DNA of 51,024 nucleotides, filler included, from Jimgerdemannia flammicorona (GCA_003990765.1; 2 parts of 2 records of this genome joined end to end with filler, not necessarily neighbours in it); one strand, 5' to 3'. Shown: positions 931 through 50,985, counted from the first letter of the whole stretch. The notes: generated by a model from the letters alone, not told the origin. Translations and numbers: made by a program.

Positions 931-1454
931 TATCTGAATTACCCACATCATCCAAGTTATTCACCTGTATCCAGTGAGTCCAAGAAGAATTCGCCATCAG
1001 TATAATTCCCAGTAAGCTGCTATTTCAGAGAAGCTACAGCCAAATAGAGTTATCTGCCAAATTGTATACTTTTGGAGATTATTATACTAATAAGATTACT
1101 AGGCAGAAATCACATAAGGAAACTACCAAATTGCCAGACCATTACACATAAGGAACCCACTGTACCATATAGAGATTGTTGTGCTACATACAAAATTCTT
1201 CTAATTCCCAGTTGACCCAAGAAGGAAATCCATTCACAAATTGCTACTATATCCAGAGAACAGTTCTGATAAGAAAATCACTATATAATTGACTGCCATA
1301 TCCAGAACTTGACTATTATATCACTAAATACCAACAAGGACCTCAGGAATCTTAGAAAATTTTGTTGCTTTTTGACAAAGTAACTGGGGGCTCAAGCCAA
1401 ACTACACTAACCCCCAACCTTGTAATTTGCCTCCATTGAGCCAGACACATTACA
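931..1454 (+). repeat. 3' portion of the 5' LTR of Gypsy copy 1
   Basis: Matches ~10070-10593; ends TTACA immediately before the PBS. Confidence 0.9.
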
Positions 1455-1456
1455 TT

Positions 1457-1473
1457 TGGGGGCTCAACTGGGA
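1457..1473 (+). promoter_or_regulatory. Primer-binding site, tRNA-Pro type
   Basis: TGGGGGCTCAACTGGGA 2 nt after the LTR end. Resembles the MLV tRNA-Pro PBS TGGGGGCTCGTCCGGGAT; identical at 43584-43600. Confidence 0.75.
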
Positions 1474-1487
1474 AGATTTCAAAATCA

Positions 1488-13914: not shown

Positions 13915-14128
13915 TCTTTATAAGTATAGTACCTTTATCTCTCATCTGAGTAACTATTACTGAAATAATTACAACTCTAATCTATGACCAAATTGATGAT
14001 ATGATATAAGAACTTAACTAGAAATATTTTAAGTATATCTGGACCATAGATAGACCCTTCTTATATCCAGATAATTATATCTTACAAATATCTCAAATTA
14101 GATATACTATGAAGAATATTTATACAGC
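13915..14128 (+). repeat. Dispersed unidentified repeat, copy a
   Basis: Colinear with 32471-32690 (AACTCTTT-ATAAGTATAG...CCAAATTGATGATAT...ATGAAGAATAT). Confidence 0.8.
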
Positions 14129-14391
14129 ACACCTTTTACTAGTAACATTCAGATAACGCAAGACTCAGACAACACTTTTCACAACATTTTTGGTGAAAGG
14201 TGACTAACAACATAGATAGCAACAAATGTACTGGTGAGTATTTTGGCCAGGGGGACAGTAGTGCCTTCAACTGGCAGCATATAGGAAGGAGGCAGGGAGA
14301 TGGTCTGGGGATGCCAGAGCCTTCTATGGTTGGCCATGGTGTTGGTGGTAGAGGGAGGGGTGGACTGAGGCAGTAAGGAGGCAGAGTGATC
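14126..14391 (+). mobile_element. LINE 5' end stub A (5' UTR plus start of ORF1)
   Basis: Decayed match to 17093-17360 (CTTT.AC..GTAACATTCAG...GGCCAGGGGG...TGGCAGCA). Confidence 0.8.
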
Positions 14392-14475
14392 TAACTCTTT
14401 TCTCCTGTATTATTCACATTATACCAACTTCAAGCAATGGTTTTCGACACAACTCAGAGAAAAGGTACTATAAAA

Positions 14476-15917
14476 ATGTCATTGAGCAAGAGTTCTGACA
14501 GGCATACTGGGTCAGGTGGACCAGGGGCATTTAGCTGGCAGTATGTGGGGAGAAGTTATGGACTGGGGATGGGGGTTTTTGGAGGGTTGAAGGGTGGAGA
14601 AGGCTCTGGAGGAGGTCTGGTGTCAGGTGGAACTGAGGGAAGGCCTGGCCCCTCCAGCTTTGTAGACAAGGTGGAGGTAAGTAGATGGCTGGCTGGGACT
14701 AGGGCGGGTGCTGCTGAGGGAAAGGGCAAGGCTAGCATCAGGAGGGGGAGTGGTGCTCAGGCAGAGGATGCAAGCATAGGTGCTGGGGGTATGTGGCTGG
14801 GAGAGTGACTGTTAATGGGAGTGTGATGGGAAATCGGAAAAAAAAAAGAGATGTGAAGGCTGATGGCCAGGTGGGGGTTCCCAATGAGGACAGGGGACCT
14901 GGCAGACAGTGTGATGGGGTTGGCAGTAACACCATTGCTCAAGAAGTCAATTTTGGAGTTTGTGGCTACTTTGTGCTTCTGGGGCTTAGTGGTGACAGTG
15001 AGGATGGTCCTGGGGCTTATCTTGAAGCAGGTGGCTGGGGCAGCCTCAGTGGAGTTCCTGAAGGGTCTGGAGGGGGTTGAGGTGGGCTTTGAGGAGGCAG
15101 GCCCATTGGAGGAGGCTTTGAGGTCTGGAGTGGCAGTAGGGGAGGTAGTGGTCCCTATGGTGAAGTGCTGAGGTGGGACCCCAGGGTGGTGCAGTTACTG
15201 GTGAAGGGAGTGCCTATAGTGATGAAGGATGAGACTAGGAGGAGGGTGGAGGAGGTAATGGTGGAGTATGGTGATGTGGTGGATATTAGTTTCCAGATGT
15301 GGGAGGGGACTACCTTCAGGACAGGTAATGTAGATATCAGGATTAGACTGGCTGAGAGAGAGGCCATGGGGAAGATGAGTGACTGGCCTTCAGTGTTAAT
15401 GTGGGGGGTCTTTGCCTGTAAGGTGTCAAGGGTGAAAGGGGGTGAAGAGGAGGAGGAGGACTTGTTGGAGGCTCTGGAGGAGTTGAGTAGTGCTGTTGAG
15501 CAGAGGACGAAGGCCTGAAAGTTATATGAGGAGTTGACACATCTGGAGATTGTAGATGAGAAATATATCTGTACAGATAAGAGATAGTGGGAGAGGGCTC
15601 AAGGACATAGGAGACAGCAGGAGATGCTGGCAAGTATAGAAGGAGGGGCGAAGATGAAGGCTGGGAGCTCTGAGAAGTCTGAGGGCATGGAGACAAGTGT
15701 CTGGGTTAGTAAGAGAGGAGGCAATGTGGCAGAGTGCCTGGAGGGGGCTGGGAAAATACTGTGTGAGGACCCATTTGATGATGACACATTTGAAGTCTGG
15801 GAACCAGTCTTGGATGACACTCCTCCACTGGTCCAGCAGGGTCCAGCTGCAAGAGGTCCAGCAGCAGAGAATGTGATGATGAAGGGTGCTCAGATACACT
15901 TTGGGGTTCCTGATGAG
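14476..15917 (+). pseudogene. LINE ORF1 paralogue B (3'-truncated)
   Basis: Own short 5' UTR (14392-14475), Gly-rich N-terminus, RRM-like core WDPRVVQLLVKGVP...EYGDVVDISF...TGNVDIRIRL. Frameshifts and stops. Confidence 0.85.
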
Positions 15918-17082
15918 AGGAGGCTGGGCCCCCCAAGTTTTGCAGATAAGGTGAAGGAGAGTGGGTGGCTGGCTGGATCTAGGGCTGGTACTGCTGTGGG
16001 AAAAGACAAGGAGAGCCTAGGGAGGGGGGGAGGTACTCAGGTGGGGGATGCAAGCATAGATGCTGGAGGGGCTGTGGCTGGGGGTGGGACTGCTGATGGT
16101 GGTATGATAGGCAATCAGGAAAAAAAAAGAGATGTGATGGTTGATAGAGGTGTGGGGCAGGGGTTCTCAATGCGGAAGGGGGATCTGGCCAATAGTATAA
16201 CAGGGCTGGTGGTGGTACTGTTACTCAGGAAATTGATCTCAGAGTTTGTGGTGACACTGTGTTTCTGAGGCTTAGCAGTGACAGCAAGAATGGTCTTGGG
16301 GCTTATCTCAAAGCAGGTGGCTGGGGCTGCCTCGGTGAAGTTCCTGAAGGGCCTGGAGGGGGTCAAGGTGGGCTTTGAGGAGGTGGGCCTACTGGAAGAG
16401 GCTCTGAAGAATAGAGTGGCAGTTGGAGAGGTGGCAGTCTCCATGATGTACTGCCTGAGGTGGGACCCCAGGGTGGTGCAGCTGTTGGTGAAGGGGGTGC
16501 CTACAGTGATGAAAGAGGAGACTAGGAGGAAGGTGGAGGCAGTGATAGCAGAGTATGGTGATGTGGTGGATGTCAGTTTCCAGGTGTGGGAGGGGACATC
16601 CATTATGACTGGTGACGTGGATGTGAGAATTAGACTGGCAGGAAGGGAGGCCACAGGGAAGGCAAGTGACTGGCCCTCAGTATTGATATGGGGGGCTTTT
16701 GTCTGTAAGGTGTCAAGGGTGAGAGGGAATGAAGAGGAGGAAGAGGACTTGCTGGAGGTGCTGGAGGAGTTGAGTGGTACTGTTGAGAGGAGGGCAAAGG
16801 CCTGGAAATTATATGAGGAGTAGACATATCTGGAGATTGTTGATGGAAAGCAGGTTCAAACTGACGAGAAGCAGTGGGAGAAGGCCCAGGGGGTGCATGA
16901 GGCAGAGAGAGCTGTTGGCAAGTAGGAGAGGAGATGCCAAGAAGAAGGTGGATAGAACTGAGGAGTCTGGAGGCATTGAAGCTAGTGTCTGGGCTAGTAA
17001 AGGAGGAGGGGAGGTGGAGGCAAACAGAGAAGGGGCTGGGAAGGTGCTAATCAAGGACCCCTATGCAGATGGTACATTCGAG
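15918..17082 (+). pseudogene. LINE ORF1 paralogue C (no 5' UTR, fused in frame to B)
   Basis: Restarts at the SFADKV motif; same core as B (ORFs 15624-16268 and 16278-16823). Confidence 0.85.
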
Positions 17083-17179
17083 GCCAATATAGGCAGCATC
17101 CTTTCACCGGTAACATTCAGGTGACACAAGATTTGGACAACACTTTTTGCAAAGTTTTTGGTGAAAAGTGACTATCAAC

Positions 17180-18730
17180 ATGGTGAGCAACGAGCTTACT
17201 GGTGAGCATGTCGGCCAGGGGGGCAGCCATGCCTTCTATTGGCAGCAGGTCGGGAGGAAACGAGGAGATGGTTTGGAGATGCCAGGGCCTTCTGTGGTTG
17301 GAAGAGGTGCTGGAGGTGGAGGAAGAGGTGGCCTGAGGCAGCGAGGTGGGGGGAGAATGACCTTTGCAGACAAGGTCCGGATGGGGAAGATGGCAGCAGG
17401 GCTGGATGGTTGGTTGGGACTGGGGAAGGTGATGCCGGTTTCAGGTGGAGGACAGGGAGGACCCCCCATGGGAGCATCGGTCAGTATGGGGGGAGGGGGA
17501 GTAGGGGTTGGAGGTGTGACTGCTGATGGGGCTGTGATGGGGAATCTGGAAAAAAATCCAGATGTGATAGTGGTTGGCGGATCAGGACAGAAGGAGGGCA
17601 CAAGGCCCGGGGACCTGGTGGATGGAGTGATGGGCATGGTGTCGGCACCGTTACCCAAAAAGTTGAGGTCGGAATTCGCTGTCTCATTGTGTTTCCAAGG
17701 CTTAGCGGTGACTGCGAGGATGATTCTGGGGCTGGTGGCGCAGGAGGTGAAGGGGGCGGCGATAGTCAAGTTTCTGAAGGGGAAAGAAGGGATTGAGGTA
17801 GGGTTTGAGGAAGAGGTGTCGATGTTGGAGGCTGTGGAGAAAGGGGTTGTAGTAGGTGGAGTGGTAGTTCCTATGGTGACAGTGCTGGATCTTCCTATGG
17901 TGTCATGGGAGAGGGCCAGGGAGTTGATTGTGGAGGTGGTCAAGGAGTATGGCGATATCATAGATATTGGGTTCAAAGTCTGGGAGGGTACAGAACTCAG
18001 GACTGGAGATATCGACATAAGGGTATGCCTGTTTGGATGGGAGAACACAGGGAAGACGAGAGACTGGCCAGCGACTCTCAAGTGGGGACTAGTTGAGTGC
18101 AAGGTCTCTCGGGTGAAAGGGACGCTGGAGGAAGAGGAGGATTTGCTGGAGGCCCTTGAGGATTTGTCAGGAGGGGTCGAGAGGAGAAGATTGGCTTGGA
18201 AGGAGTATGAGGCCAAGACAGTGGTGGAAATTGTGGAAGGGAAGAAAGTCAGGATGGACCGAGGAATCTGGGAGAAGATGCAGGGGAGGAGAATTCAGAA
18301 GGAGCTGTTGGAGAAATTGGGAGGTGGCACAGTTGGAAGTGGAGGGGGAGGAGGTGGAGTAGGATCGAGGGAGAGTGACTGGGCTGGGGAGCCCAGAGCA
18401 GCCCAAGGTGTGGCCCAAGAGGTCCTTGGCGAGGGAGGACAGGGCGGCATGGTGGAGGATGCTGAAATGAGTATGGAAGTACAAATGCAGTATAGGGTCC
18501 CTGAAGGGGCCAGAGGGGAGGAGGAACTTCTTGATGTCCTGAAGGAGGAGTGGGACGAGTCAGGGAGGAGGAGCGCATTGGTGGAAACTGCGATTGAGGT
18601 GGAAGGGAGTGCCCAGGGAGTCGAGGCAGAGGTGGATGAGGAGAAGTGGTTGTGGAAGACTCTGGAGGGGGTGGCAGCTGAGGAGCTGGGTGGTGAGGAC
18701 TTCTGGGTTATGAGTGACAGGCACTGGGAG
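17180..18730 (+). pseudogene. LINE ORF1 paralogue D (open frame, 3'-truncated)
   Basis: 5' UTR 17093-17179; uninterrupted frame (ORF 17168-18904) with the same core. Lacks the WDPRVVQLLVK segment. Confidence 0.85.
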
Positions 18731-18801
18731 ATCAACATTCAGGTTACACAACCTTTTGGCAACACCTTCGACACAGTTTCTGGAGACAAGCTACTAGTAT
18801 C

Positions 18802-20835
18802 ATGGCAACCAACATACACTCTAAGGTGCGTACTGGGCAGGGTGGCCCTGGAGCGTTTGAATGGCAGCAAGAAGGGAGAGGCCCTGGTCTGGGGGGCAGT
18901 ATGAGGGGTCTGCTGGCGGGAGGACGCGGTGGTGGAGGGGGTGGAACAGGAGGTCAAGGATCTGGCAGGGTGAGCTTCGCAGAGAAGGTGAAGGGGGGTC
19001 AGCAGGGAGCTGGTCTGGAGAGCTGGCTGAGGGGAGGGAAGGTGCTGGTGAGAGCTACAAGACAGCAACCTCATGGGGGTGCCTCTCTGGAGGGCCTTAG
19101 GGGTGGAGCTGGGGGGGTAGCAGCTGGGATGGGGACTGCTAATGGGGGTGTGATGGGCAATCTGGAAAAAAATCTAGATGGGACTGCTGATGGTAAGCTG
19201 AGCAGTGGGAAGGGCGTGAGGACTGGGGACCTGGCGGATGGTATAATGGGGCTGGCCATGGCTCCATTACTCAAAAAGTCGATCTCGGAATTTGCAGTCA
19301 CGATGTGTTTCCGGGGCTTGGCGGTGATGGTGAAAATAGTTCTGGGGCTGATCATGAAGCAGATGAGTGGTGCGGCATCTGTTAAGTTTCTGAAGGGCCT
19401 GGAAGGAGTGGAGGTGGGATTTGAGGAGGCTGGGCCACTGGAGGAGGCTTTGAATGTGGGGTTGACAGTGGGTGAGGTGTGCATACCAATGGTGAGATGT
19501 CTACGGTGGGACCCAAGAGTGGTGCAACTTCTGGTGAAAGGAGTACCCACAGTTACTACTGTAGAGATGAGGAAGAGAGTCGAGGAGATCATGGCGGAGT
19601 ATGGCAAGGTGGTTGATATTGGATTCAGAGTGTGGGAAGGAACCTCTCTCCAGACAGGGGACATGGATGTCAGGATTAGGTTGGCTGGACAGGAGGCTAC
19701 TGGGAAGGCTCGGGACTGGCTCTCAGTGATGGTGTGGGGAGCTTTCTTGTGCAAGGTGATGAGAGTGAAGGGGAGCGAGGAGGAGGAGGAGGATTTGCTG
19801 GAAGCACTGGAGGAGTTGAGTGGAGTGGTGGAGAGGAGGGCGAAGGTATGGGAGGCTTTCGAGGTGGTAATGCATCTTGAGGTGGTTGGAGGAAAGTGAG
19901 TCTGCATCAACAAGGAGGTGTGGGAGAGGTCTCAAGGGCGCAGGAGACAGAAGGAATTGTTGGTGAAAATGGAAGCAGAGGTTATGAGGAAGGCATGTGA
20001 TGATGTGACCACTGGAGGGGCTGCAGAGAGTGTCTGGGCTGCGGATAGTGGGAGGAGTATGGAGGGAAGGCAGGTGGAGGCTGAGAAGGTGCCGAGTGAG
20101 GATCCTTATGTGGATGGCACATTGGAGGTTTGGGAGGAAACCTGGGCAGATTCACCTTCACCCTCTCCCCTTATCAGAAGGGGTCCAGCGGTGAGAGGTA
20201 GGGCAGGGGAGGATGTGCTGATGTACGGTGCTCAACAAGTGCACTTTGGAGTACCAAATGTGGAGAAGGGGGGATTGGTAGAGGCGACTGGGGAAGAGGA
20301 ATTGGTAGATGTCCCAGAGGAGGGATGGAATGAGTCGGTGAGTATAGGGGCTGATACTACGATGTTGGATGGAGGGAGACTAGCGACCCCAGGAGGGAAG
20401 GAGGTGGAGAACCTGCTCTGGATATGCCAGATGATGAATAACTTGGTAGCGGAAGAGCTGGGGGAAGTCAACCTCCAGGCAATGAGCAATGAGCATTGGG
20501 CAGGGATCTTGCAGAGTGATGGAGTGGAGGCAGCATTGAAGGCAGAAATTCTGGCAGTGTACTTGGAGGAGGAGGGGTATGAGGTCGATAAGGAGAGGGA
20601 AGCTGCTCTGGCTGTGGTGGCGGGTGAGTGGGCTGCCCACTGTTGGAATAAGAGGCATGGGCTGCAGCTCTGGCAGGAGGCTTGTGTGGAGTACCGTGAG
20701 GAGTTTGAGGAGAAGGAGGATGCAGAGATGGCTGAGATTCTGGCTGAATTGGAGGCCAAGAGAGCCGAGGAAGCTGAAGTTATTGCTGAGCACGACCTAG
20801 ACAGAGCACAGGAGGAAGGGGCCATGGAGCAGTAG
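18802..20835 (+). pseudogene. LINE E ORF1 (~677 codons, one premature TGA at 19897)
   Basis: ORFs 18802-19899 and 19918-20835 are in the same frame. RRM-like core and acidic coiled-coil-like C-terminus. Confidence 0.88.
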
Positions 20836-20899
20836 AGGACTCATCTGAGACTATATAATATCTCTTATAAATAGTACAACCAACATTTTTTCTTTTAAC

Positions 20900-23800
20900 A
20901 TGAATGGGCTGTGGGGCACTTATCAGTGTAAGAACATTTTTACTTGGCTGAAGGGATTGGAGGCTGATCTCTTTCTCTTGCAGGACGTACAGTGTGAGGA
21001 TGACTTGGATAGAATGGAATGGAGGAAGAAATGGGGTAGTGAGGCAGTCTGGAAAGGCAAGGTTGGAATTCTGGTGCAGAAAGGCAGAGGGGAAATGTGG
21101 GGTGTATGGAGCTGGGGAGATAGATTGGTCTGGGGAGAGTGGATTCATGCTGGTTGGGAACCAGTCATGGTGGGCTCATGTTACTGCCCTGCAGTGCGGG
21201 GCGAGCAGGTGGATTGGGTGACAGGTCTACAGGAGAGTGGAATTCTGGTGGAAGTTGGGGTAGATGTGCTTGTTGGAGACTTCAATATGGTCCGTGATGT
21301 ACAGAGGGATAGAACTGATGGAGGATGAGGAGCTGTGGGTCAGAGTGGAGGACTGGGGGCATGGGAGGAAGTGGAAAGACTGAGTGCTCTGATGGATGCG
21401 GGTAGGGAATACTGGGGGAATAGGAGGGTATATACACACTGGGCCAGGGGCCTGGGGATAAGGATTGACTGGATTCTGACTGCCAGCTACTGGGGTTTAG
21501 ATGTTTGGAAGTCACTGGAGGTAGAATGGTGCCCTTGGTCAGATCATTGGGGGCTTTTAGGGCAGAGACATTTTGGGGGGAGTGGGGATGGGCCTGGACA
21601 TTGGTGCCTCAATTCCTCCTTATTAGATGATAAGTCCCAGTGGGATAAATGGGCTGAAGTTGTGCAACTACAGGTGGAGGGCTGGAGGCAGAAAGGTATC
21701 CCAGTTGATGTTCAGTGGCTGAAGATAAAGGAGATGGCCAGAACCTTCTGGAGAGAGGCTGTCTTGAAGGCTGGGAGACAGAGGAGGAGACAGGTGCAGT
21801 GGGCATCGAGTAGACTATCTCAACTCTTGGAGGACTGGGCAAGACTGGCGATGTTGGAGGGAGAGAAGGACTGGTGTTTAATGAGGGTGAGAATGGAGGT
21901 GGCTGAACTACAGCAGGTGCTGAGGAGTGAGGAAGAGGCAAGGGTCCAGGGTCTGGCAGCACGGCTTCATTGGCAGGGGCTAGAGGAAGGAGAGAGGCCC
22001 TCAAAGTTTCTTATGAGAGCACTTCAGGCATGAAGAGTGCAGCAGAGGTGGGAGGGGGTGATTAATGCTGATGGTATATTGGTGCATGGGGTACAAGATG
22101 TTCTTGGATCATTAAAGGAACATTGGAGTAGTTTGTGGAGTGAGGAGGAGGGTGGGGCAGATGCTGATGATATTGATCGAGCATTGGCAGATTGGCACCC
22201 TACATGAGCTGATGGGTTGGAGGACTTAGTAATGCCAGTGCTAGAGGAGGAGATCTACTAGGTTCTTGCCACGACAACCTTGGGTATAGTACCTGGGGAG
22301 GATGGTCTACTCTGGGACTTCTGGAAAAGGATGGTGGGAGTCCCTGGAGTACTGGGTGAGATGACAGCATTGTGTGACTGGATTCTACAGATAGGGAGAT
22401 GGGTGGGACAACAGAATCTTGGGCTGGTGACATTGCTTTATAAGAACAAAGGGGGCTGTGAGGACTGGAAGAACTGGAGGCCGATTATGCTGCTAGATAT
22501 GGATAGAAAGTTAGTTACCAAAGTGGTGGTCGCAAGGTTGCAAAAGGTGGCACAGCAAGTCTTGGGTGAGGAGCAGCAGGGATTTGTGGGAGGCTGGCTC
22601 ATCAGAGATGGCATGGCATGGGTGCATGGTGTGATAGAAGGGGCAAGAGCAAGTGGACTGGATGGCCATCTGGTCTTTTTAGACCAGGAGAAGGCCTATG
22701 ACTGAGTGCGACAGGTCTGGCTAGCGAAAGTGCTGGATAGGATTGGGGTCCCACAGCCATTCAGGGCCTGCATGGTCAGCCTACTGGAAGGGAGTAGGGC
22801 GGCACTCATGTGTAATGGGCATAGAGGGGTGGCATTTCCCCTGGATAGGGGGGTGCCCCAGGGGGACCTGTTGTCCCCCATTTTGTATGCTTTGTCTCTG
22901 GAACCCTTCATGGACAGAATTAGGAAGAAGATAGTGGGGCTCTCTATCTTTGGCATCGGGTGGAAAGTTGGGGCATTGCAGATGACATGGTGGTTGGTCT
23001 GAGATCAATTGCAGATGTTGAGGAGCTCAAGGAAACAGTAGAGTGGTATGAGGCGAACTCTGGGATCAGGCTTAATTGGCATAAGTGCGAAACAATGGTG
23101 TTAGGCAATGGGCTGCTGGGTGGGGAGATTATTGGAACAATTGTCCCTGCTGGGGAGGCAGTCAGATACTTGGGTATTTATCTGTCAGTATATGGATCAG
23201 TTCTGCCCAAGCTTTGGTCAGAGCAGCAAGTTGGCATTTGGGAGGAGGCCCTGTGGAGTTGGGGCCACCAATTGTCTCTAGCAGGACGTGTTTCGATTCT
23301 GAACATCTATTGGCTGCTGAAGGTGTGGTATCTGGCTTATCATCTGGATTTCCCAGCTTGGGTGGTGAGGAGGTTGATGAAGATGGCCAAGGGGTGAATT
23401 TGGGCTGGAAGGCAGAGTCAAATCAGCTGGGAGGTCTTGTTCTTACTGGTGGCAAGTGGGGGACTTGGACTGATTGACTTTCCTAAGAGGCTATACTGTT
23501 TGAGGGCATGGTGGTTGAAGAGAGCAGTAGAGTTAAGAGGGGGTGGCTGGGTTCCCCTACTGCAGAAAGTCTGGGAGAGGAGGTCCTCCCCAAGGGGTTT
23601 GATGGGTGATCTCCTTGCTCTGGTGGGCCTTCGGAACTCTGGGCAATTGCGATACAAAGGCTTCTGGTGGGGGGTGGCAGAGGGGGTGTGCTGCATTGGA
23701 ATTCGGTGGTAGGGAAATGAAGGGGAGGAGGCTTGGGACCCTGCGATGTGGCAATGGGACCAAGTGTTACTGGGCGGTATTTCTCTAATTGAGTTTGACA

Positions 23801-24350
23801 TTGGGGATGGAATTGAATTCCAATGGGGACCAGGCCAGGATCTGTGGCCTAGCAGCTGGCAGGGAGTAGAAATTGGTGAGGAGTGGGACTAGCAAAGCAT
23901 TTGGCCCTGGAGTGCCGAGGTGAGGAGGTGGCTGCCACCAAAATATTGGGTGGTCTGGTGGCGGGTGCTGTAGTGCAATGTCATGCTTAACTTCTGCTTG
24001 GGTCACCTTGTCGAGAGAGGCTGCTTTGACTGTGAAGTTATAATGTAGGGCAGGAAGGGGGATTTGTACAGATGCCTGAACATTGGCTAGGGGAGTGTGA
24101 GGTACTTAGTATCTTTTGGCAGAACATTGAGGATCATTTGGGGGTAGTGTGTAGGGGAGCTGAAGTGTGGGGGCATTGGGAGGATTTATGGGGCAGACTG
24201 GAGGGAGGGGTGGGGAAGGAATGGCTGACTTTGGGTTGGGCTCTGGTCATTTGGATGGGGATGGCCAGTCACTGATTATTTGTTTTTGAGGATGGGAGGA
24301 AACTTAGCTCTAAGGGCAGGATGTTGAGGTGGTGGAGCCTTATGGAGGAC
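20900..24350 (+). pseudogene. LINE E ORF2: APE endonuclease - reverse transcriptase - zinc finger
   Basis: NGL, GDFN, RIDW, SDH (APE). PGEDG, WRPIMLL, QQGF, LDQEKAYD, GVPQGDLLSP, ADD with a 1-nt deletion just upstream (~22976), YLG (RT). CFDC...HWLGEC zinc finger. In-frame stops. Confidence 0.93.
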
Positions 24351-25473
24351 AGCTCCTTTCTCCGCTACCTTACCGGTCACAAGGTTTGGTAGGCGATCTT
24401 CCGAGTCCCCTTTCCCCTAATATTACCCCCTCTACCTCGGGTTGGTTTGCTGTGCCTGCAGGGGCATGGTGGGAGGAGGGCAATGGTGCTGAGTTGCCTC
24501 TTTATTGGTGTCGGATCAGTGCTTCCTCCACTTTTTCGCGGATTCTGGTGCCTTCAGCTGCATCTGGGGTGTACCTGTTTTGGTGCGGCGCCTTCTTCCT
24601 TTTGCCATCGCCAACAAGGAGTTGTCTCGGTGTGTCTTGGGCTATGTAGGGAGTCGGCCGACCTTGGGCGTCAAGTGCTCAGTGTAGGTTACCTGCAGGT
24701 CCTCAGTGCCTGTGGTGGGGCCCTCTGGCTTTGGCGAGCTTCCCGGCGAGTGTGGTTCTGACGTAGGTGACTGCTTTTCGGGTGTTGTTGGGATGGGAGG
24801 GGAGATGGCCGTCACAGATAGGTGGAAGGGCGATTACGGTGAACCAGTAGGGTACCAGGCTGGGGGCGGTCGTCAGGCTGGGGCAGGTGCTGCTTCGGTG
24901 GGGCCTTTTGATTGGTACGGTGCAGTTAGGTAGTAGGTGTCACTCTCGGCTTCTTTTGGCAGGTAGCGGGGTGAGGCCCCAGTCATCAGGGGGGGTCAGG
25001 GGGCCCGAGGCTACCCATTTCAGGCATCTTGGCTGCACTCAACTGGAACTGGGAGCTGACACGGCAACGTGATCGAGGCCCGCAGGCTTGAGTAGTGGGG
25101 TATTGGGGGTTTCCTCCCGCCTCACGTGTAAGTTCTTTACTCACCTTGACTGGGAGAACCAGGCCCTATCCACCATGTTGTGCTTTGATGAGGGTTTTTT
25201 CTTTGCCTGTCATTCTCTTTGGAGTGGCAGGGGCTATTCTATTTAGCTCAGGCGTGGCCTTGTACATACGATGGGTTCTCAGGCATGCGCTTTCGGTCAT
25301 TGGCGTATGGTTGGGTTTCCCCTGGCGGTAGGGAGAGCATGGTGCACAGAATGAGGTGCAGGCTTATCAGCCCTGCTGCGCCTGGCATGGTCAAGCTGCT
25401 GGACAATAGCTAGTCTAGGTTAATGGGGGGGCAGTGCTTGGTGGGTGGTGGGGGAGGGTTTTGGCCTATATAG
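24350..25473 (+). mobile_element. Unidentified CpG-rich repeat F, copy 1 (runs into the gap)
   Basis: Colinear along its length with 49807-50929. Starts CTCCTTTCTCCGCTACCTT; no convincing ORF. Confidence 0.75.
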
Positions 25474-25573
25474 NNNNNNNNNNNNNNNNNNNNNNNNNNN
25501 NNNNNNNNNNNNNNNNNTTAATTAATTAANNNNNNNNNNNNNNNNNNNNNNNNNNNNNNNNNNNNNNNNNNNN
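25474..25573. other. Assembly gap with artificial six-frame stop linker
   Basis: 44 N + TTAATTAATTAA (25518-25529) + 44 N. Confidence 0.95.
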
Positions 25574-25703
25574 CTCCTCCCACCATGCCCCTGCAGGCAC
25601 AGCAAACCAACCCGAGGTAGAGGGGGTAATAATAGGGGAAAGGGGACTCGGAAGGTCGCCTACCAAACCTTGTGACCGGTAAGGTAGCGGAGAAAGGAGC
25701 TGT
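25574..25703 (-). mobile_element. Repeat F, copy 2 (first ~130 bp, runs into the gap)
   Basis: Reverse complement of 24349-24478 with the same start boundary. Confidence 0.8.
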
Positions 25704-25778
25704 GGCAATTCTTCCACCTCTACTAATAGATAATATGAACTCTACCTCCACCATGTATTCCCCAACCACATTACTGCC

Positions 25779-26414
25779 ATTGAGATGAGATGGACAGATG
25801 ATTGAGGTGAGATAGACAGATGATTGAGATAAGACAGACAGATAATTGAGATAAGATAGATAGATGATTGAGGCAAGACAGACAGACAGACAGATGATTG
25901 AGATGAGATGGACAGATGATTGAGATGAGATGGTTGAGACAAGATGGACAGACAATTGAGATGAGATGGATGGACAATTGAGGCAAGATGAAAGGACAAT
26001 TGAGATGAGATGGACAGATGATTGAGACCAGACAGACAGATGATTGAGATGAGATAGATGGACAATTGAGATGAGACAGACAGATGATTGAGGCAAGATA
26101 GATGGATGATTGAGATGAGATGGATAGACAATTGAGATAAGATAGATGGATGATTGAGATGAGATAGATGGACAATTGAGATGAGATGGATGGATGATTG
26201 AGGTGAGATGGATGGACAATTGAGATGAGACAGATGAACAATTGAGGCAAGATGGATGGATGATTGAGACGAGACAGATGGATGATTGAGACAAGATGGA
26301 TGGATGATTGAGACAAGATGGATAGACAATTGAGATAAGACAAGACAGACAATTGAGATGAGATGGACAATTGAGACAAGACAGAACTAGATAGACAATT
26401 GAGATGAGATGGAC
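25779..26414 (+). repeat. Degenerate ~18-22 bp minisatellite (GATTGAGATGAGATGGATGGAT-like)
   Basis: Tandem ATTGAGA(T/C)(G/A)AGA units interleaved with GATG/GACA tetramers. Confidence 0.9.
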
Positions 26415-42212: not shown

Positions 42213-43581
42213 TGTGACAGACCAAAACGTACCACCTGAATTATAACTTAGCCAGATGACGTGAACAATTAGCATACATACCCAGCATGATGTGACTTCC
42301 AGTGTATCATAGTTACTCATGCCCACCACACTTATAATTAGCCAAGACACCAGATCAGGATTGTTTACCTGTGTCCTGTGGACACACTCATGTCCTGTGG
42401 ACACACTCATGTCCGGCGGACACACTTATGTCCTGCAGACACACTCATGTCCTGTGGATACACCTGTATCCAGAGGACACACCCAAACATTACCAAAGAT
42501 AGCAAATCTATAGTTAGCCACATAGTAACCAGATAGCAACCAACTTGTATAAATTACCCAGAGGTGCAAGTGAATAAAACCTCAGTCCGAAAAGTCCGAA
42601 ATTGAAGCAAAAGACAAGTCTGCCTACCACACTTCGAGAGGAACTCTACAGTCACTGTTAGGAGATTGTGAGCTTATTTCCCCTTTCCACTCCAGTCCAC
42701 TTTCCAATATAAAGAATGAGTTCATTTTTGGTACGCTTGCCAGATAAGCCTGAAGAATTCCAGTTTTCCGCCAAGTTCAAGGAAGAACTTCGCTGCATTC
42801 CCAGAGAGCCCACCTTTCTTGCCACAAGCCAGTTTCTGATGCAACTTCGCAGTGATCTGTTCATGCAAACGAAGCCAGTCCTTGACACAACTTTGCCAAG
42901 AGCCCCTCTCCAAGCCGCCATCCTGTTTCCCAGTTAAAGCCCACCATTTATAAGCTATCCACCATATTTCCAGTTGAAGCCGCTGATTTAGAAGAATCTG
43001 CGCCACCCAAGTTAATTTCCAGTTAAAGCCACCAACTTAGAAGAATCCATGTCACCCACCATTTTCAAGTTATCCACCTTCCCAGAGAACCTGCGCCATC
43101 TGAGTTATTTATTATTCCCAGTGAGCCTAGGAAGAATCTATGCCATACAATTCCCAGTGAGTCAAATCGAGTTATCCACCAAATTATCAGAACATCCTGT
43201 ATAAGGAACCTGCCGCGCTACACAAGAGATCGTCGTGCTACACAGAGATCATCATGCAGGAACCATATAAGGAGAACCACTAAATTGCCAGATCGTCATG
43301 CAGAAATCAGAGATCATCACTCAAGAAGAAAACCACTCACGCTACATACAAATTCTGTCATTCCCAGTTGACCCAGAAAGGAAACCCATTCACACAAATT
43401 GCTGCTACACCCAGAGAACTGTCCCAATAAGGAAATCGCTTGCAGATATCCAGCTTTTGACTATTATACCACTAAATACCAAGAACATTTTGTTGCTTTT
43501 TGACAAAGTAACTGGGGGCTCAAGCCAAACTACAATAACCCCCAACCTTGTAATTTGCCTCCATTGAGCCGGCATGTTATA
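42213..43581 (+). repeat. 5' LTR of Gypsy copy 2 (~1.37 kb)
   Basis: Starts TGTGAC at the edge of the CpG-rich island and ends CATGTTATA before the PBS. 19-bp tandem repeat at 42372-42482; TATAAA near 42548. The left boundary is less certain because U3 differs from copy 1. Confidence 0.82.
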
Positions 43582-43583
43582 TT

Positions 43584-43600
43584 TGGGGGCTCAACTGGGA
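43584..43600 (+). promoter_or_regulatory. Primer-binding site, tRNA-Pro type
   Basis: TGGGGGCTCAACTGGGA directly after the LTR end. Confidence 0.75.
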
Positions 43601-43614
43601 AGATTTCAAAATCA

Positions 43615-46600
43615 ACGTGACTTTTCAGCTCACAGGAACCTACAATCAAACTGGATACATTTGATACAACACCAACCTCTGCCACTACAGGAGAACCAGT
43701 CATCACTAGCATTTGGACAGGAAGAGAAGTAATCATCTCAAGACTTGCCAACTACCCAGCATCAGAAGGATCCCAACCAGAAGCAGGAGGCAGTACAGTC
43801 TGAAATCCCCAACCAGATCAACCAGATCAACCAGATCAACCAGACAATACAGGCAGCCCTGCTGGAATTTTTGGAGAACTTGCACAAGAACTAGAAGACC
43901 TTATTACTCGGACCCAATATCTTACAGCCAGACACCCTCCACCAGTCCCACCAATCTCACCAATAGAACCTCTACTACAATCTCTTAGAGAACCAGAAGT
44001 AGCTCCTACAAGAATACCTAGGTCTACTCCACCTCACCCAAGGACCAGAACACCATTTTCAAGATACCCAAGTACTCCTGTCTCTAGTGACAGTTCGGAA
44101 AGTGAATCAGAATCAGAATCTGAATTTGAACCAGAATCAGAAGAAAGTGACGAAGGAATGGCCACCTCATTACCAATCTTTGCAGGATACCTGGAGGAAG
44201 ACCCCAGAGAATTCCTTAATAGAATTGAAGGAATTGCAGTCTTGAGGAACCTCTCAGATGAAAGGAAAATCGCCATCTACAAAGCTCAGCTCAGAGAACC
44301 AGCCAGAGGGATTTTCCATCGAACAACAAACAGCCCAGATTCAGAACTAGCAAGACAGATACAAGCAGCAGTCTCCTATGAGCTAGAATATCAGACCATG
44401 GTCTACTGGCTCATAGAAAAGTATGCAGGAAATGAAATCCGCCATAAGGCTCAGGAATCCATTATGGGAATGAAGATGAATCTTGGAGAATCACCCCAAG
44501 CTTTCTTCATAAGAATCCAGAAGAGAATGCACTCTGCCAGGTTCAATGCCACCAACCAAGATATCATAGGTCCAATGACCTTCATGAATGGAATTCCTCC
44601 AAACATTGCTCAGCATGTTCACACCCTAGGCATCAGAAGGTCTGAAGAGCAAGTAGATGCAGCCTAAGGATTCTTTGATGTCAGGCAAGGAACTATCTGG
44701 AGCGACCATGACAAGAAGGAAGATAAAGAAGATATTCTGGTCAAAGCCCTGCAAGGACTCTTTCAAGGACATAAAAGGTCTGAAGAAAGAAGGCCAGCCA
44801 AGGAAGGAAAGAAGGACAGAAGTGAAATTCAAGACCTCAGCTCCAAGTTAGACTGATTGGTGGGACAGATTGAAAAACTCACCACACGTGAAAATCAGGA
44901 CTACCAAAATAACAGAGGGTACCCACCACAGAGGAACCAAGGTTATCTACCAAGAGATAATAGAAATTACCAGCAAGAAGAAAGAAGGTACCCTGTCCAA
45001 GATAGAACCCAAGTCCAATGCTTTTACTGTAGACAATTCAGACACTATACTACTGAATGTGACAACAAAAGAAGTGACCAAAGGGACTCAGAACCACCAA
45101 ACCAAAGGAGTGACACTCAGTACAAGAAGACTGAAGCCCATCCTGTTGAAGATTTCGAAGAAGCAAGCAACAGTAAAGACTACAGTGATCTAGACTTGTA
45201 TCCTACCAAGGTTACCACCCGAAAGACAGTCTACCCAGCAGAAAAAAGAAAGAGACCCATGGGAAGACCATCCAGGAACATCAGCAGGAGAATCATTCAA
45301 GAAGAAGATGAAGAACATGAGGAGGAACAAGTTGAAACACCTCCCCGAACCCCCTCACCCTTTATGCCTGAGACAAATGAATTGCCACCAGAAGATGAGG
45401 AAATGGAATAAGAAGAATGGGAACCTGTTGCTCCAAAGTCCAAGAAGAAGTACACTCTAAAGACCATGCCTAGAGACATTTACAATGAAGTCTGGCAGAA
45501 GATTCAAGAAGCCAAGATGGAAGTTCCTCTCCTACAGTTCTTGCAATTGATACCAGCTGGAGTTCGAAACAAATTGCTGAGAACCACAAGGTCTAGTACT
45601 GGCTGAGTTCCAATCCCACAGCAAGAACCAGTCTCCATCCCTGTCCAAGCAGCTGAAAGACATGTTAGCACTTACTTACATGGAGACATCAGAGGACAAA
45701 AAGCAAAAATCCTCATAGATACAGGAGCAGCTGTCTGTGTCATTGCCAAACAATTCTTGGACATCCTCCAATGGCCCATTGATGGACCATCCAACCTCAG
45801 CATCATAGTAGCAGATGGAGCCCGAACTCAACCCCTTGGAGAAGTACGAAATATCACTATCTCTCTTGGACACATTCAGTTCTCCATCCCCAAAGCTGTT
45901 ATCACTGAAGCTGTCACCTATGATATGATTCTTGGCACCAACTGGATGAAGGAAATGAATGCAGTTGTTGATATTGGCCAACAAGTACTCAAGTTTGACT
46001 ACCAAGACAAGAAGTATAGAGTTAAGGTAACCAGCTATGAACAATCAAAGAAGAAGAAGAAGGTCACTATCCAAGAAGAATATGCCAGCAGTGAGGAGTC
46101 TACTATAGAGGAGGAAGAAGAATCTGAAGATGGAAATGATCCCAGACTCAATCCTTGAATTAACCTGGTGGATGACAGACCAGAAGACAACGTGTGGGCC
46201 AAGAACACCATTCCCATCACCATTGGAGCCATTGCAGGAGAAGCCAAAGGATGCCCTATATGCCTCAAGAGATACAAGTGTCCTGAGCACTCCTCCAAGA
46301 TCATGGGAAAAAGGAAATCGCCTGGTGCAGTCTGCCCAGAATGCAGAAGAAAGAAGAAGGCTGCAGACACATTCCAGAAACACCTGCAACTGAAGCTGCA
46401 GAGGTACAAGCAATTTGGGGTCAAGAATTATCTGAGGAAGAAGAAACTTCTGACCAAGAAGTCCCTGAACAAGAAACACCTGATGAAGAAGAAGTCCCTG
46501 AACTCATTCCTTGAAATGATCCACGTTGGACACCACCTGAAGACAATGACCCCTGGAATACAGAGGAAGGACCTAGTACTATCACCATTATCCCAAAGAA

Positions 46601-48149
46601 AGAAACCCACCAAGAGAAAGCTTTCCGGCTAGGAAGATGTCCACATCAAATGGTCTTCCACTCTCCCCGAGACTATTGCTATTAGTGTCATCTGCTGGAC
46701 CAACAAGAAAGACAGAGACCCCAGAGACCAGAACCCCCAACTACTCTTGCACAGTCTACCACCTTTCAGGAAGTTACCACAAGATTACAAAGTCGATTTA
46801 GAGGACAAGGCTTCTTTATCCAAACAGAAATATATCCCTTGTCTACCCTTCCCCCAACCTATGATCAAGATGGGTACTGATTCCCAAGACAACAAGAGAT
46901 AAATAGCCAAGAACATCATTTCCAAGCAATGGGATATTGCAACCATGGGAGACACCCTGATTGCCAAGACTGCAGACATCAGAAGATTCACCTCAGTCAT
47001 GATGTTGCAGTGCACACCTTAAAGAAAGGAGATAACTGAAGCCAGATCCGGAAAAGTCAGATTCGAAAAAGCCAGACCAAGAAGCCTGGAAAAAGAATTC
47101 TCAAGATCTATGATTTGGGAGAAGATATCCTAGCTCTCATCAGACATATAACCCACCAAGGATGGGCAGAAGATGCTACCAACTTCATGGAAGCCCTTGA
47201 CCCTACAGGAAGAAGGAGAATAAATTACCTCTGAGACCCCTCTACTGGAGCCAGATGGCCACACCTCAACCTTAGAGCTTGAAGGCTTTCCGCTAGTGGA
47301 GCTTCAGCCTTAGGAAAGCTTGAACTCAGCAAGGACATCACCCAGTATGCCCCCAAGGCCAAACCCCTGACCAAAGCCCACCCAGAGGATATAGGATATG
47401 ATCTTCACAGCTTAGAGGATGAATCCATCAAGCCTGGAAAAACCTTCATGGTCAGAACCGGATTAGCCATGCAGCCACCTCAAGGAGCTTATATTCAACT
47501 GACCTCAAGGTCTGGACTTGCCAGACAAGGAATAACTATAGAAGGAGGAACCATTGACCCTGGATATACAGGCGAAATCAAGGTTATCCTACACAACAGC
47601 AGTGCAGAATGGCACCGAATCATTAGAGGACAGAAGATTGCCCAAGCAGTCTTCATGAAGGTCAAGACCCCACAGTTACAGGAAGTCTCTGAACTAACCA
47701 AAGGAATAAGACAAGCTAAGGGATTTGGAAGTTCAGACAGAAAAGAGGTGCACCTCCTTCAAGTCAACCGCCTCAAGAAGAATGTTCCCCAGCAAGTATA
47801 CTGGCAACCAGTCAGACTGCACAAGAATCTCATCTTGGAGCCTGGAGAACAAACCACTTTCGAAATATTTGTACCACCTGACCTCAGAAACCTCTTCTTT
47901 GAACCTAAGGAAGATATCCCACACCTAGACATAGAGGGGCACACATTTCCTGACAAGATGAATCCAGTACACTCCCAAGCAACCAACCAAAGTTGGGAGA
48001 CCATCATCCTGCCAAGAGGAACCATCATAGGACATCTGGTGCCTTTTCTCAACCGAACTCATAGAGAAGTTTATGAACTAAACCTATCGGGAAATGGCAA
48101 AAGGTCCCAGAAGAAAGGAAAGGCCCCTCTGCGACCCAGGAGACAGTGA
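43615..48149 (+). pseudogene. Gypsy copy 2 ORF1: Gag - CCHC - protease - Cys/His region - dUTPase - dUTPase-like fold
   Basis: ORFs 44158, 44857, 45757 and 46168 share a frame; a 1-nt deletion near 46355 shifts to the frame of 47448. CFYCRQFRHYTTEC, LIDTGA and all five dUTPase motifs are present. Confidence 0.9.
47350..47740 (+). other. dut: Trimeric dUTPase domain within Gypsy ORF1
   Basis: GYDL (47394), SRSGLA, GTIDPGYTGEIKV, KIAQ, RQAKGFGSS (47721-47735). Confidence 0.92.
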
Positions 48150-48157
48150 AGCCTTCC
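48089..48157 (+). promoter_or_regulatory. Predicted -1 ribosomal frameshift signal (slippery heptamer + pseudoknot)
   Basis: In-frame G GGA AAT and 7-nt spacer. Stem GGTCCCAGAAG/CCTCTGCGACC; loop GGAAAGGC complementary to GCCTTCC. Stems conserved in copy 1 (5947-6015). Confidence 0.7.
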
Positions 48158-49561
48158 ACCAACATTGGAGAAGAATTGACACCCCAACAACAGCAACAAC
48201 TAGTAGAACTTCTCAATAAATATCAAGATATCTTCATCACCGATTATGGCAACCTGCCATACAACCCATCATATCTTTACAGCATAAATACAGGAAGTGC
48301 AACACCCATCTGGCAGAAACCCTATAGAATACCCCATCACTTGAAAATATTCGAAAAGGAGCACATCCAAGAACTCTTAGACAATGGAGTCATCCGACCC
48401 TCTACCAGCCCCTGGGCCAGCCCTATACTTATTGTACCAAAGAAAGGAGGATGGAGACTCTGCATGGATTACAGAAAACTCAACTCAGTTACTGAAAAGG
48501 ATGCTTATCCTTTGCCCAGAATCAATGACCTTTTGGACCAGTTACAAGATGCCAGATACTTCAGCAGTATGGATCTCTTCGCAGGGTTCCATGAGATCCC
48601 CATGGACCCCAAGGACATTCAAAAGACAGCCTTCCTTGCTCTAGGAAAACTGTTTGAATACCTCCAAATGTCCTTTGGACTTTGCAATGCACCCCCCACC
48701 TTCCAGAGAATGATGAATTCGGTCTATGCCCCCTTGATCCACCACTGCCTGATTGTATACATGGATGATTCCAACATTTACTCAGCAAATTTCGAAGAAC
48801 ACCCACATCACCTAGAGGAATTCTTCAAGCTCACCTGCAAGAATCACTTGAGACTGAATGCAAAGAAATGCTACTTTGGAAAACAGAAACTTGAATTCCT
48901 AGGATTTGTGGTCTCAAAAGAAGGAACTCATGCAGACCCAAAGAAAACCAAGAAGATCAACAATTGGCCAGTACCCAAGACCCCAAAGGAAACACTATCA
49001 TTCCTGATGCTGGTATCCTACTACAGAAGGTTCATCAAGGATTTCACCCAAATTGCTGCCCCAATCCGAATCCTTCTCAAGAAAGGAATGATATTCAAAT
49101 GGACAGAATTACAGGAAAAAGCCTTCAGAGAACTCAAGAACCGCATGACTACAGCACCAATCCTTATGCGCCCCAATCTACAGAAGCCATTCATCTTGTA
49201 TACAGATGCTTCCAAAGATGGCTTGGGAGCAGTTCTAGCCCAAGAAGGACCTGACCAACAGCACCATATGATAGCTTATGCAAGCAGAGCTACCAATCAG
49301 CAGCAGACGAACTATGGTAGCACCAAACTGAAATGCCTTGCAGTCATATGGGCAGTCACCCTGTTCAAGCATTACCTCATTGGAAAAAGGTTCACCCTAA
49401 TCACAGACCATGCAGCCCTCAAATGGCTATTTAACTGCAAGGAACCTGCTGGAATTCTAGCCCGCTGGATCCTTATCCTTCAGGATTACAAAATCACCAT
49501 CATTCATAAAGCAGGGAAAGCCTACAACAATGTTGATGTACTTTCCCACCAGCCCCAATGA
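48146..49561 (+). CDS. Gypsy reverse transcriptase-RNase H (open frame, probably expressed by -1 frameshift from ORF1)
   Basis: 471-aa uninterrupted frame: SPWASP, YPLPRI, FGLCNAP.TFQR, YMDD, LYTDAS, TDHAALKW. Confidence 0.9.
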   Translation: MKPSTNIGEELTPQQQQQLVELLNKYQDIFITDYGNLPYNPSYLYSINTGSATPIWQKPYRIPHHLKIFEKEHIQELLDNGVIRPSTSPWASPILIVPKKGGWRLCMDYRKLNSVTEKDAYPLPRINDLLDQLQDARYFSSMDLFAGFHEIPMDPKDIQKTAFLALGKLFEYLQMSFGLCNAPPTFQRMMNSVYAPLIHHCLIVYMDDSNIYSANFEEHPHHLEEFFKLTCKNHLRLNAKKCYFGKQKLEFLGFVVSKEGTHADPKKTKKINNWPVPKTPKETLSFLMLVSYYRRFIKDFTQIAAPIRILLKKGMIFKWTELQEKAFRELKNRMTTAPILMRPNLQKPFILYTDASKDGLGAVLAQEGPDQQHHMIAYASRATNQQQTNYGSTKLKCLAVIWAVTLFKHYLIGKRFTLITDHAALKWLFNCKEPAGILARWILILQDYKITIIHKAGKAYNNVDVLSHQPQ

Positions 49562-49795
49562 ATCAGAGGAAGGGTGTCCTGAGGAACCACACCCTAAAGG
49601 AAGCTCCTCAGACTATCAAAGCACAAGAAGATCTTATCCAAAAAGAACATCAGAAAGCCCACCAAGGACAGACAAGCATAGAAGATAGGATTCGAGAACA
49701 GTATCAACATTGGCCCCACCTCAGAACTCAAGTTCGGGACATCATCCAGAAATGTGACATTTGTCAGAAGTACTAAGGAAAGAAGAATTATCCAG
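49558..49795 (+). pseudogene. Integrase N-terminal HHCC domain (separate -1 ORF), truncated by insertion
   Basis: ATG overlapping the RNase H TGA; EHQKAHQG...HWP.LR..V...I.KCDICQK. Confidence 0.85.
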
Positions 49796-49806
49796 TGAAC
49801 TGGTCA

Positions 49807-50985
49807 CTCCTTTCTTCGCTACCTTATCGGTCACAAGGTTTGGTAGGCAACCTTCTGAGTCCCCTTTCCCCTAATATTGCCCCCTCTACCTTGGGTTGGT
49901 TTGCTGTGCCTGCAGGGGCATGGTGGGAGGAGGGCAATGGTGTTGAGTTGTCCCTTTATCAGTATCAGATCGGTGCTTCCTCCACTTTTTCGTGGATTCT
50001 GGTGCCTTCAGCTGTGTCTGGGGTGTACCCGTTTTGGTGCAGCACCTTCTTCCTTTTGCTGTCGCCAACAAGGAGTTGTCTTGGTGTGTCTCGGGCTACG
50101 TAGGGAGTCGGCCGACCTTGGGCATCAAGTGCCCAGTGTAGGTTACCTGCAGGTCTTCAGTGCCTGTAGTGGGGCCCTCTGGCTTTGGCAAGCTTCCTGG
50201 CAAGTGCAGTTCTGGCGTAGGTGACTGCTTTTCAGGTGTTGTCGGGTTGGGAGGGGAGATGGCTATCATAGATAGGAGAAAGGGCGATAACAGTGGACCA
50301 GTAGGGTGCCAGACTGGGGGCGGTCGTCGGGGTTGGGGCAGGTACTGCTTCAGTGGAGCCTTTTGATTGGTGCAGCGTGGTTAGGTGGTAGGTGTCACTC
50401 TCGGCTTCTTTTGGTGGGTAGCGGGGTGAGGCCCCAGTCATCAGGGGGGGTCGGGGGGCCCGAGGCTACCCATTTCAGGCGTCTTGGCTACACTTAACTG
50501 GAACCAGGAGCTGACATAGCAATGTGATCGAGGCCCACAGGCTTGAGTAGTGGGGTATTAGGGGTTTCCTCTCACCTTATATGTAAGTCCTTTACTCATC
50601 TCAACTGGGAGAACCAGGCCCTATCCACTGTGTTGTACTTTGATGAGGGTTTTTTCTTTGCTTGTTATTCTCTTTGGGGTGGCAGGGGCTATTCTATTCA
50701 GCTCAGGTGTAGCCTTGTACATATGTTGGGTTCTCGGGCATGTGCTTTTGGTCGTTAGTGTATGGCTGGGTTTCCCCTGGTGGTAGGGAGAGCATGGTGT
50801 GCAGAATGAGGTGTGGGCTTATTTGCCCTGCTGCACCTGGCATGGTCGAGCTACTGGACAATAGCTAGCCTAGGTTAATGGGGGGGCAGTGCTTGGTGGG
50901 TGGTGGGAGAGGGTTTTGGCCTATACAGTCTAGATTCCCTTCCAATAAAATTCCGCGAGACATAGAGTCCATTAAACAAAAAAAA
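49807..50985 (+). mobile_element. Repeat F, copy 3
   Basis: Same start boundary and colinear with 24353-25473. Continues to AATAAA (50944) and A8 (50978-50985); true end uncertain. Confidence 0.75.

Follow-up and report, generated by a model that had tools for sequence, protein, structure and literature searches.

How does a long terminal repeat (LTR) retrotransposon supply its integrase (IN) when the reading frame that encodes its reverse transcriptase (RT) and RNase H (RH) closes before IN begins? The prevailing view of LTR retroelements and retroviruses is that IN is brought into the particle at the tail end of Gag-Pol, at a dosage set by an upstream frameshift or readthrough event. The question is raised by a 51,024-nt stretch of DNA from Jimgerdemannia flammicorona (GCA_003990765.1; parts of two records joined end to end with filler), referred to here as the window, which is repeat-rich eukaryotic DNA and contains two copies of one Ty3/gypsy element, both on the + strand and 83.5–84.8% identical to each other (84.8% in a global alignment). 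Pfam matches occur in the order protease (PR), RT, RH and IN along copy 2, and the rve core domain of IN is detected in copy 1. By this domain order, its flanking LTRs and its IN motifs (the HHCC zinc finger and the DDE core), the element belongs to Ty3/gypsy (Metaviridae), but it departs from the usual, though not strictly defining, trait of carrying RT, RH and IN in one pol frame.

The RT-RH open reading frame (ORF) of copy 2 (48077–49561, frame 2) comprises 494 codons without an internal stop (48077–49558) and matches RVT_1 (E = 1.4e-31) and RT_RNaseH (E = 4.3e-37), the latter match ending at residue 471. The translated frame finishes as NNVDVLSHQPQ at TGA 49559–49561, three residues past DVLSH, the last conserved motif of RNase H. 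The ATG at 49558–49560 overlaps this stop as ATGA (within CAATGA; the sequence context of 49558..49561 is GCCCCAATGAA) and begins the IN ORF in frame 1, which is −1 relative to RT-RH. This −1 frame is open from 49537 to 49773 and carries an Integrase_H2C2 domain (Pfam, E = 1.9e-10), with zinc-finger residues His31, His35, Cys66 and Cys69 as numbered from the ATG. Copy 2 retains just the first 72 IN codons (49558–49776), ending at TAA 49774, a private nonsense change that is CAA in copy 1. Additional stops in the RH frame are found at TGA 49580 and TAA 49595 (CCC TAA). The RH and IN frames overlap only at 49537–49561, a stretch of 8 codons (GTA CTT TCC CAC CAG CCC CAA TGA) in which no X XXY YYZ heptamer is present in the RH frame. 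In copy 1 the junction reads ATA at 7427–7429 and TAA at 7428–7430, and the RH/IN offset is common to both copies because they align without an indel between 48430 and 49790. The original prediction had drawn attention to this junction: to the RH stop after DVLSHQPQ with the HHCC domain in the −1 frame from ATG 49558, to the same spacing and offset in copy 1, to a further RH-frame stop in CCC TAA and to the lack of an in-frame slippery heptamer. Direct reading and alignment confirm this observation.

One explanation of such an offset would be a 1-nt deletion inherited by a dead, non-autonomous lineage in which the IN frame is disused. Both window copies are decayed and have two extra gag-PR stops in common, and transitions dominate the differences between them (C>T 282, G>A 213, T>C 195, A>G 124). 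Copy 1 has accumulated 8 private stops and insertions of 7 and 4 nt in RT-RH (5935–7430, ending at TAA 7428–7430), and its IN (7427–8497, with ATA in place of the ATG of copy 2) contains many stops, 5 of them private and within the first 73 codons, although what remains of HHCC can still be made out, as can the rve core and the D, D, E motifs. Since both copies are dead and share two gag-PR stops, they are by themselves uninformative on function, which counts against the explanation favoured here.

Contigs of four public runs (X1, X4, X8 and X3; 565, 24, 27 and 17 contigs, respectively) were placed on 48600–49790 at 80% likeness, the best DNA share of any run being 0.26 and no RNA run appearing among the matching runs listed. 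Twelve indel rows were listed, all at 48747–49121 and none in more than one contig of X4 or X8, and no indel was found among the listed rows in 49122–49790; the junction itself (49520–49599) is covered only by X1 (depth 342–409) and X4 (about 5–6), X8 and X3 giving no usable cover. The absence of a junction indel in the X1 and X4 contigs argues against a deletion carried by a dead lineage. The pattern of nucleotide variation argues in the same direction, within a sample of 40 of 243 variant places in contigs that drop rare variants, a restriction that tempers the case for a functional IN frame. Changes at 26 of the 40 places are synonymous, and those at the other 14 are nonsynonymous. In the RT-RH frame, 19 of 32 variant places fall on third codon positions (p = 0.002); in the IN frame, 6 of 8 do so (p = 0.02), and the latter stretch read in the RH frame gives 1 of 8. 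The variants in the IN frame are thus consistent with purifying selection.

Intact IN ORFs of the same family were found in metagenomes. P0241, a protein of 354 aa that is 79% identical to the 72 IN residues of copy 2, has both H2C2 and rve domains above the Pfam cut-offs, and the D, D, E motifs DVIGPL, SDRGTEF and TERMN can be read in it as in copy 1; P0242 was also found by a search with the same 72 residues. The P0241 cluster has 19 members, of which 15 are listed, with starts as called by a gene finder. Twelve of the 15 begin with M[NS][QK]RKGV, the Met corresponding to ATG 49558, and six, from separate metagenome contigs, are full length at 354–355 aa. That full-length family ORFs begin at the same Met on separate contigs is difficult to reconcile with a disused frame. 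From the third-position excess, the junction free of indels and the intact IN ORFs we conclude that the family evolved under constraint with IN in the −1 frame, and on these comparisons the RH/IN offset is not a private 1-nt deletion. The original prediction would have been undermined had the youngest copies or a consensus carried RH and IN in one frame; what was found instead was a junction without indels and intact separate IN ORFs.

Searched with RT-RH, the longer proteins gave no match above 48% identity, and an exhaustive search of representative proteins with RT-RH likewise gave none closer than 48%, multi-copy giant proteins dominating the results. Among 120 listed RT-RH relatives, 27 end 0–27 residues past the D.LSR motif of RNase H, including proteins of Rhizophagus clarus (ending SLSRIQY), Rhizopus delemar and R. 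arrhizus (Rhizopus proteins ending FLSRLGY). In a FastTree phylogeny of 112 RT-RH rows, 29 of the 30 early-stop rows fall in two adjacent clades totalling 34 rows, and the early-stop state requires at least 4 changes over the tree. P0039 and P0080 are the nearest neighbours of the window element (support 91), and the Rhizopus clade joins them next (96), FastTree supports being soft and the branch of the window element long. P0039 and P0080 also end early, and each runs from gag to RH in one ORF, of 1499 and 1445 aa, respectively. The Rhizopus, P0039 and P0080 elements enter the comparison as proteins, so that a downstream IN is putative for them, which weighs against the explanation favoured here.

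The two nearest tree relatives, P0039 and P0080, also carry a dUTPase between protease and RT, as the window element does, and this group looks like a dUTPase-bearing sub-lineage of the split-pol clade. Within the split group, P0046, P0065, P0066 and P0095 form a sub-clade in which the pol ORF extends 233–329 residues past RNase H as an acidic, Cys-containing tail without a recorded Pfam integrase domain. At two metagenome loci, L005 (3873–4871 and 5001–6446) and L013 (72–1202 and 1302–2678), integrase precedes RT-RH, and the end of pol, which follows RNase H, adjoins a purine tract and an LTR-like start. This domain order is Gmr1-like. An ORF that ends after RNase H thus does not of itself prove a downstream IN, since at L005 and L013 IN is upstream of RT-RH.

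Direct evidence of the two-ORF layout comes from DNA. A metagenome scan yielded 80 loci with DNA, and IN similarity places just two of them, L001 and L014, in the split clade, so that besides the window these two loci constitute the DNA evidence for the clade; scans of viral contigs and genome contigs gave no DNA of the family or the clade. RT-RH and IN are fused in 47 of the 65 metagenome loci that have both domains, and most of the others look decayed, with additional stops. In L001 three ORFs are open, encoding gag, a PR-RT-RH protein ending ALSRRPPCLKTGTSI at its stop, and a 429-aa IN; a second stop follows PR-RT-RH, and the first stop is separated by 33 nt from the IN ATG, which is in the same frame. 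L014 has its IN ORF in the −1 frame, beginning at an ATG 77 nt after the stop. The gag (1–2919) and PR-RT-RH (2898–4964) ORFs of the intact relative L001 overlap by 22 nt (2898–2919) with a −1 offset, so that this locus has the usual gag/pol frameshift layout followed by a separate IN ORF.

A search with the L001 IN produced 1516 matches. Among the best 120, which are 42–88% identical to the query, 92 are 405–460 aa in length and 90 start with M-x4-[YF]-x5-[YFH]; they include stand-alone proteins of Rhizophagus irregularis, R. clarus and Entrophospora candida. A first-residue Met kept across 42–88% identity marks a real initiation codon, and the fused INs P0050 and P0063, from other clades, have no Met at that position. 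With X placed at its stops, the copy 1 IN found its best 40 matches entirely within the stand-alone set. The split-pol architecture is thus, as judged from these proteins and loci, one that extends beyond the family and is clade-wide and older than it. The family IN differs from others in the clade in that its H2C2 domain starts at residue 21, as opposed to residues 57–59 in L001 and P0172, making its N terminus ~40 residues shorter, and P0241 residues 21–246 align to residues 55–280 of the prototype foamy virus (PFV) integrase. Because of this earlier H2C2 start and the PFV alignment, the N-terminal extension domain appears to be nearly gone from the family IN, and the ATGA overlap is probably a derived, compact form of the two-ORF junction of the clade. 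Occurrence of the same architecture in the nearest relatives is also contrary to descent from a dead lineage, an explanation that is now largely refuted and that we consider very improbable.

A different way of obtaining IN from this arrangement would be to fuse it to RT-RH after all, by a non-canonical −1 frameshift within 49537–49561 or by splicing out a short intron. An overlap of 8 codons between the two frames would permit the former, and the presence of a canonical heptamer, G GGA AAT, elsewhere in the same element (48089–48095) suggests that the family may use recoding; seven GT..AG pairs of a suitable length class would keep the frame open in the latter case. Against a frameshift, the overlap has no X XXY YYZ heptamer, structure downstream is not above that of shuffled sequences (z = −0.45) and there is no Rfam match. 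The intron was rejected: all seven GT..AG candidates, of 35–80 nt, delete the conserved RNase H motif VLSH, and their donors are poor (GTTGAT and GTACTT) and both lost in copy 1. Fusion of either kind also sits badly with the initial Met of 12 of the 15 listed family ORFs and 90 of the 120 listed clade INs, and in L001 it would have to pass two in-frame stops. We therefore regard fusion as unlikely. In two Entrophospora sp. gene models, P0146 and P0155, RNase H and IN pieces are joined through predicted introns, and automated annotation of genome records may be hiding the two-ORF layout.

Taken with the family IN ORFs, the pattern of variants, the early-ending RT-RH relatives and the stand-alone INs, the junction points strongly to an IN that is a separate cistron with its own start, and the split-pol architecture put forward in the original prediction is upheld to that extent. 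Under this model, the (gag-PR-dUTPase-)RT-RNase H ORF would terminate right after RNase H, and IN would be translated from the AUG of the downstream cistron as a protein of ~354 aa that is not fused to Pol. IN would then probably exist as a free protein. Judging from the relatives and from the soil and root runs, the family most likely belongs to a Glomeromycotina-like soil fungus.

By what route ribosomes would arrive at this AUG is a separate matter. In coupled termination-reinitiation, ribosomes or 40S subunits would finish Pol and restart on the overlapping AUG, yielding sub-stoichiometric IN. Fungal translation is capable of restart at AUGA or UAAUG, as the victoriviruses and a hypovirus illustrate in the relevant parts of two accounts (PMC6631646, PMC10275272). 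Stop-restart is favoured here because of the AUGA overlap, the use of the same device by fungal viruses and the position of the IN ORF near the Pol stop in all three DNA cases, and by analogy we consider reinitiation at AUGA, with moderate confidence, to be the most likely route to IN.

Several features of the junction weigh against this route. No UGGGA motif complementary to 18S rRNA, of the TURBS type (a site upstream of termination that binds ribosomes), occurs in 49400–49561. The fold of 49470–49640 is no better than shuffles (z = −0.45) as scored over pseudoknot-free structures; within this region, a hairpin of GGGAAAG and CUUUCCC (49514–49547) is present in both the minimum free energy and centroid folds. 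No Rfam match was found in 47900–49800 at E up to 1. The context of the IN AUG is weak, with C at −3. The ATGA overlap is also specific to the family and is not seen in the relatives L001 and L014. According to the portion of PMC10275272 that deals with distance, TURBS-type restart drops beyond about 30 nt. As the starts of L001 and L014 lie 33 and 77 nt after the stop, one overlap-dependent mechanism cannot serve the whole clade.

These same features may be accommodated if IN is a separate cistron expressed from its own spliced or internally initiated subgenomic mRNA or from an internal ribosome entry site, in which case the AUGA would simply follow from the compactness of the junction. A conserved IN start is combined with a spacing and frame that vary (−1 nt in the window family; +33 nt, same frame, in L001; +77 nt, −1 frame, in L014), which fits a start independent of the upstream stop equally well as it fits restart, and the junction is without a TURBS motif or significant fold. 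Foamy virus pol and errantivirus env are expressed via spliced subgenomic RNAs. Retroelements thus do use spliced RNAs, and splicing is also described for the plant element Ogre in the pertinent section of PMC6317226. On the other side, the IN ORF is within 77 nt of the Pol stop in each of the three DNA cases, as coupling would also predict. An independent mRNA or ribosome entry site is a possible route for IN, and in our estimation a rather less probable one than reinitiation.

The proposed bicistronic pol may be compared with known systems. Like canonical Ty3/gypsy elements such as yeast Ty3, the element has the domain order PR-RT-RH-IN, an IN with HHCC and rve core, and LTRs, and P0241 residues 20–334 align to Ty3 Gag-Pol in PDB 7q5b (E = 1.3e-18). 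In canonical elements IN is the C-terminal part of a single Pol polyprotein, whereas in this element Pol terminates after RNase H and a separate AUG serves IN; a further difference is that most of the N-terminal extension is missing from the family IN. In foamy viruses, Pol is made from its own spliced mRNA, separately from Gag, and IN stays fused to RT-RH. They are thus similar in that a retroelement enzyme is produced without fusion to the upstream protein, and among solved structures the family IN (P0241) matches PFV IN best (E = 5e-28). Among plant LTR retrotransposons, Ogre and Bianca have a coding region in two ORFs as a lineage feature and not as a product of decay, in the part of PMC6317226 devoted to them. 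The same part reports that in Ogre an intron spliced from part of the transcripts restores one polyprotein, unlike the arrangement proposed here. The polyprotein of Ogre and Bianca is, so far as that part describes it, also split elsewhere, whereas here the break lies between RH and IN, with a gap of no more than 77 nt and a conserved initiator Met.

For restart itself, the coat protein/RNA-dependent RNA polymerase (CP/RdRp) junction of victorivirus HvV190S is a parallel, with a fungal host, AUGA, a −1 offset start over the stop and a separate downstream product, as given in the passages of PMC6631646 on this junction. The same passages state that restart in victoriviruses requires an H-type pseudoknot immediately upstream, within a 38-nt element. 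In addition, the upstream ORF is far longer in the fungal element, and relatives of the element are without the overlap. By this analogy the junction may work like victorivirus-type AUGA restart. Hypovirus CHV1 uses a UAAUG stop-restart, in which the start overlaps the stop. In the non-LTR retrotransposon SART1, the downstream ORF is also expressed by reinitiation at an overlapping stop-start, UAAUG, according to the relevant section of PMC10275272. SART1 differs in being a non-LTR element, in having its split between a gag-like ORF1 and ORF2 and not within pol and, as that section has it, in depending on downstream RNA structure. A non-LTR element of Polysphondylium with separate endonuclease (APE), RT and RH ORFs, as outlined in the part of PMC5911963 concerned with it, offers a partial analogue.

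The remaining parts of the two copies, and their surroundings in the window, are as follows. Copy 2 spans 43341–49790 and copy 1 spans 1183–7659 and onward. In copy 2 the gag region, with a CCHC knuckle, occupies 43804–45408 (+ strand, frame 1) and is interrupted by stops at 44665 and 44854, and the aspartic protease segment, identified by a Pfam match, lies at 45607–46155 (+ strand, frame 1). The gag-PR frame of copy 2 has 7 stops, of which 5 are private and 2 are common with copy 1. The shared stops are TGA 44854–44856 and TAG 46630–46632, every other internal stop being private; either the common ancestor of the copies was already defective, or these are readthrough sites. The LTR pair is seen in copy 1, where part of the 5' LTR (933–1447, + strand) is 84% identical over 516 nt to part of the 3' LTR (10073–10586, + strand); for copy 2 the window covers the 5' side only for LTR purposes. 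Copy 2 is interrupted within the integrase at ~49790 by a repeat (49790–50928) that is 90% identical to 24353–25473, and the loose ends of run contigs show that other family copies continue at ~49790 as copy 1 does.

The dUTPase-containing ORF of copy 2 (47283–48149, + strand, frame 0; Pfam, E = 4.5e-27) lies between protease and RT and overlaps the RT ORF (frame 2, a −1 offset) by 73 nt, at 48077–48149. The heptamer G GGA AAT at 48089–48095 is in frame and canonical and falls in this overlap, making it a candidate programmed −1 frameshift site; copy 1 has GGAAAAT (G>A), and the fold downstream of the heptamer is not significant relative to shuffles (z = 0.13). In the relatives P0039 and P0080 the dUTPase-to-RT domains are carried in one ORF. 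The shift out of the protease frame into the dUTPase frame, likewise −1, takes place in 46900–47283, where copy 2 has stops in all three frames; this segment is without an indel between the copies, which therefore have this third frame change in common as well. On the − strand at 10593–12869, head to head with the 3' LTR of copy 1, is a third gag copy, partial and more distant (70% identical to 43396–45676). The part of the window from 14000 to 26000 has a G+C content of 0.50–0.56 and a strong GC skew of 0.27–0.50, is flanked by AT-rich DNA (G+C content 0.23–0.33 at 26–34 kb), and contains short N runs at 25474–25517 and 25530–25573.

No published description of a stand-alone IN ORF in Ty3/gypsy was found in a literature search outside Repbase and subscription journals, and no literature linking LTR retrotransposon, termination-reinitiation and integrase was found. 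Tentatively, a Ty3/gypsy clade in early-diverging fungi (Glomeromycotina, and perhaps Mucorales) may have abandoned the Pol-IN fusion and may make a free IN by restart after a Gag-Pol ORF of 1,000–1,500 codons; such an IN would get to the cDNA without having been packaged within a polyprotein and could work in trans on other copies, and a bicistronic pol would be found here for the first time among LTR retroelements. The rule that IN travels as the tail of Gag-Pol would be broken by a lineage in which IN has a conserved cistron to itself. Such a lineage raises the questions of how, in a fungus, a ribosome or transcript gets to an AUG preceded by a very long ORF, how a free IN locates the particle or the cDNA, and whether IN works in trans, mobilising copies that have none. 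The AUGA junction of the window family is the most compact one for reporter testing of the first of these. The matter also bears on annotation: in arbuscular mycorrhizal fungal genomes such ORFs are at present filed as lone "DDE-type integrase/transposase" genes, and pol ORFs without IN may be scored as defective.

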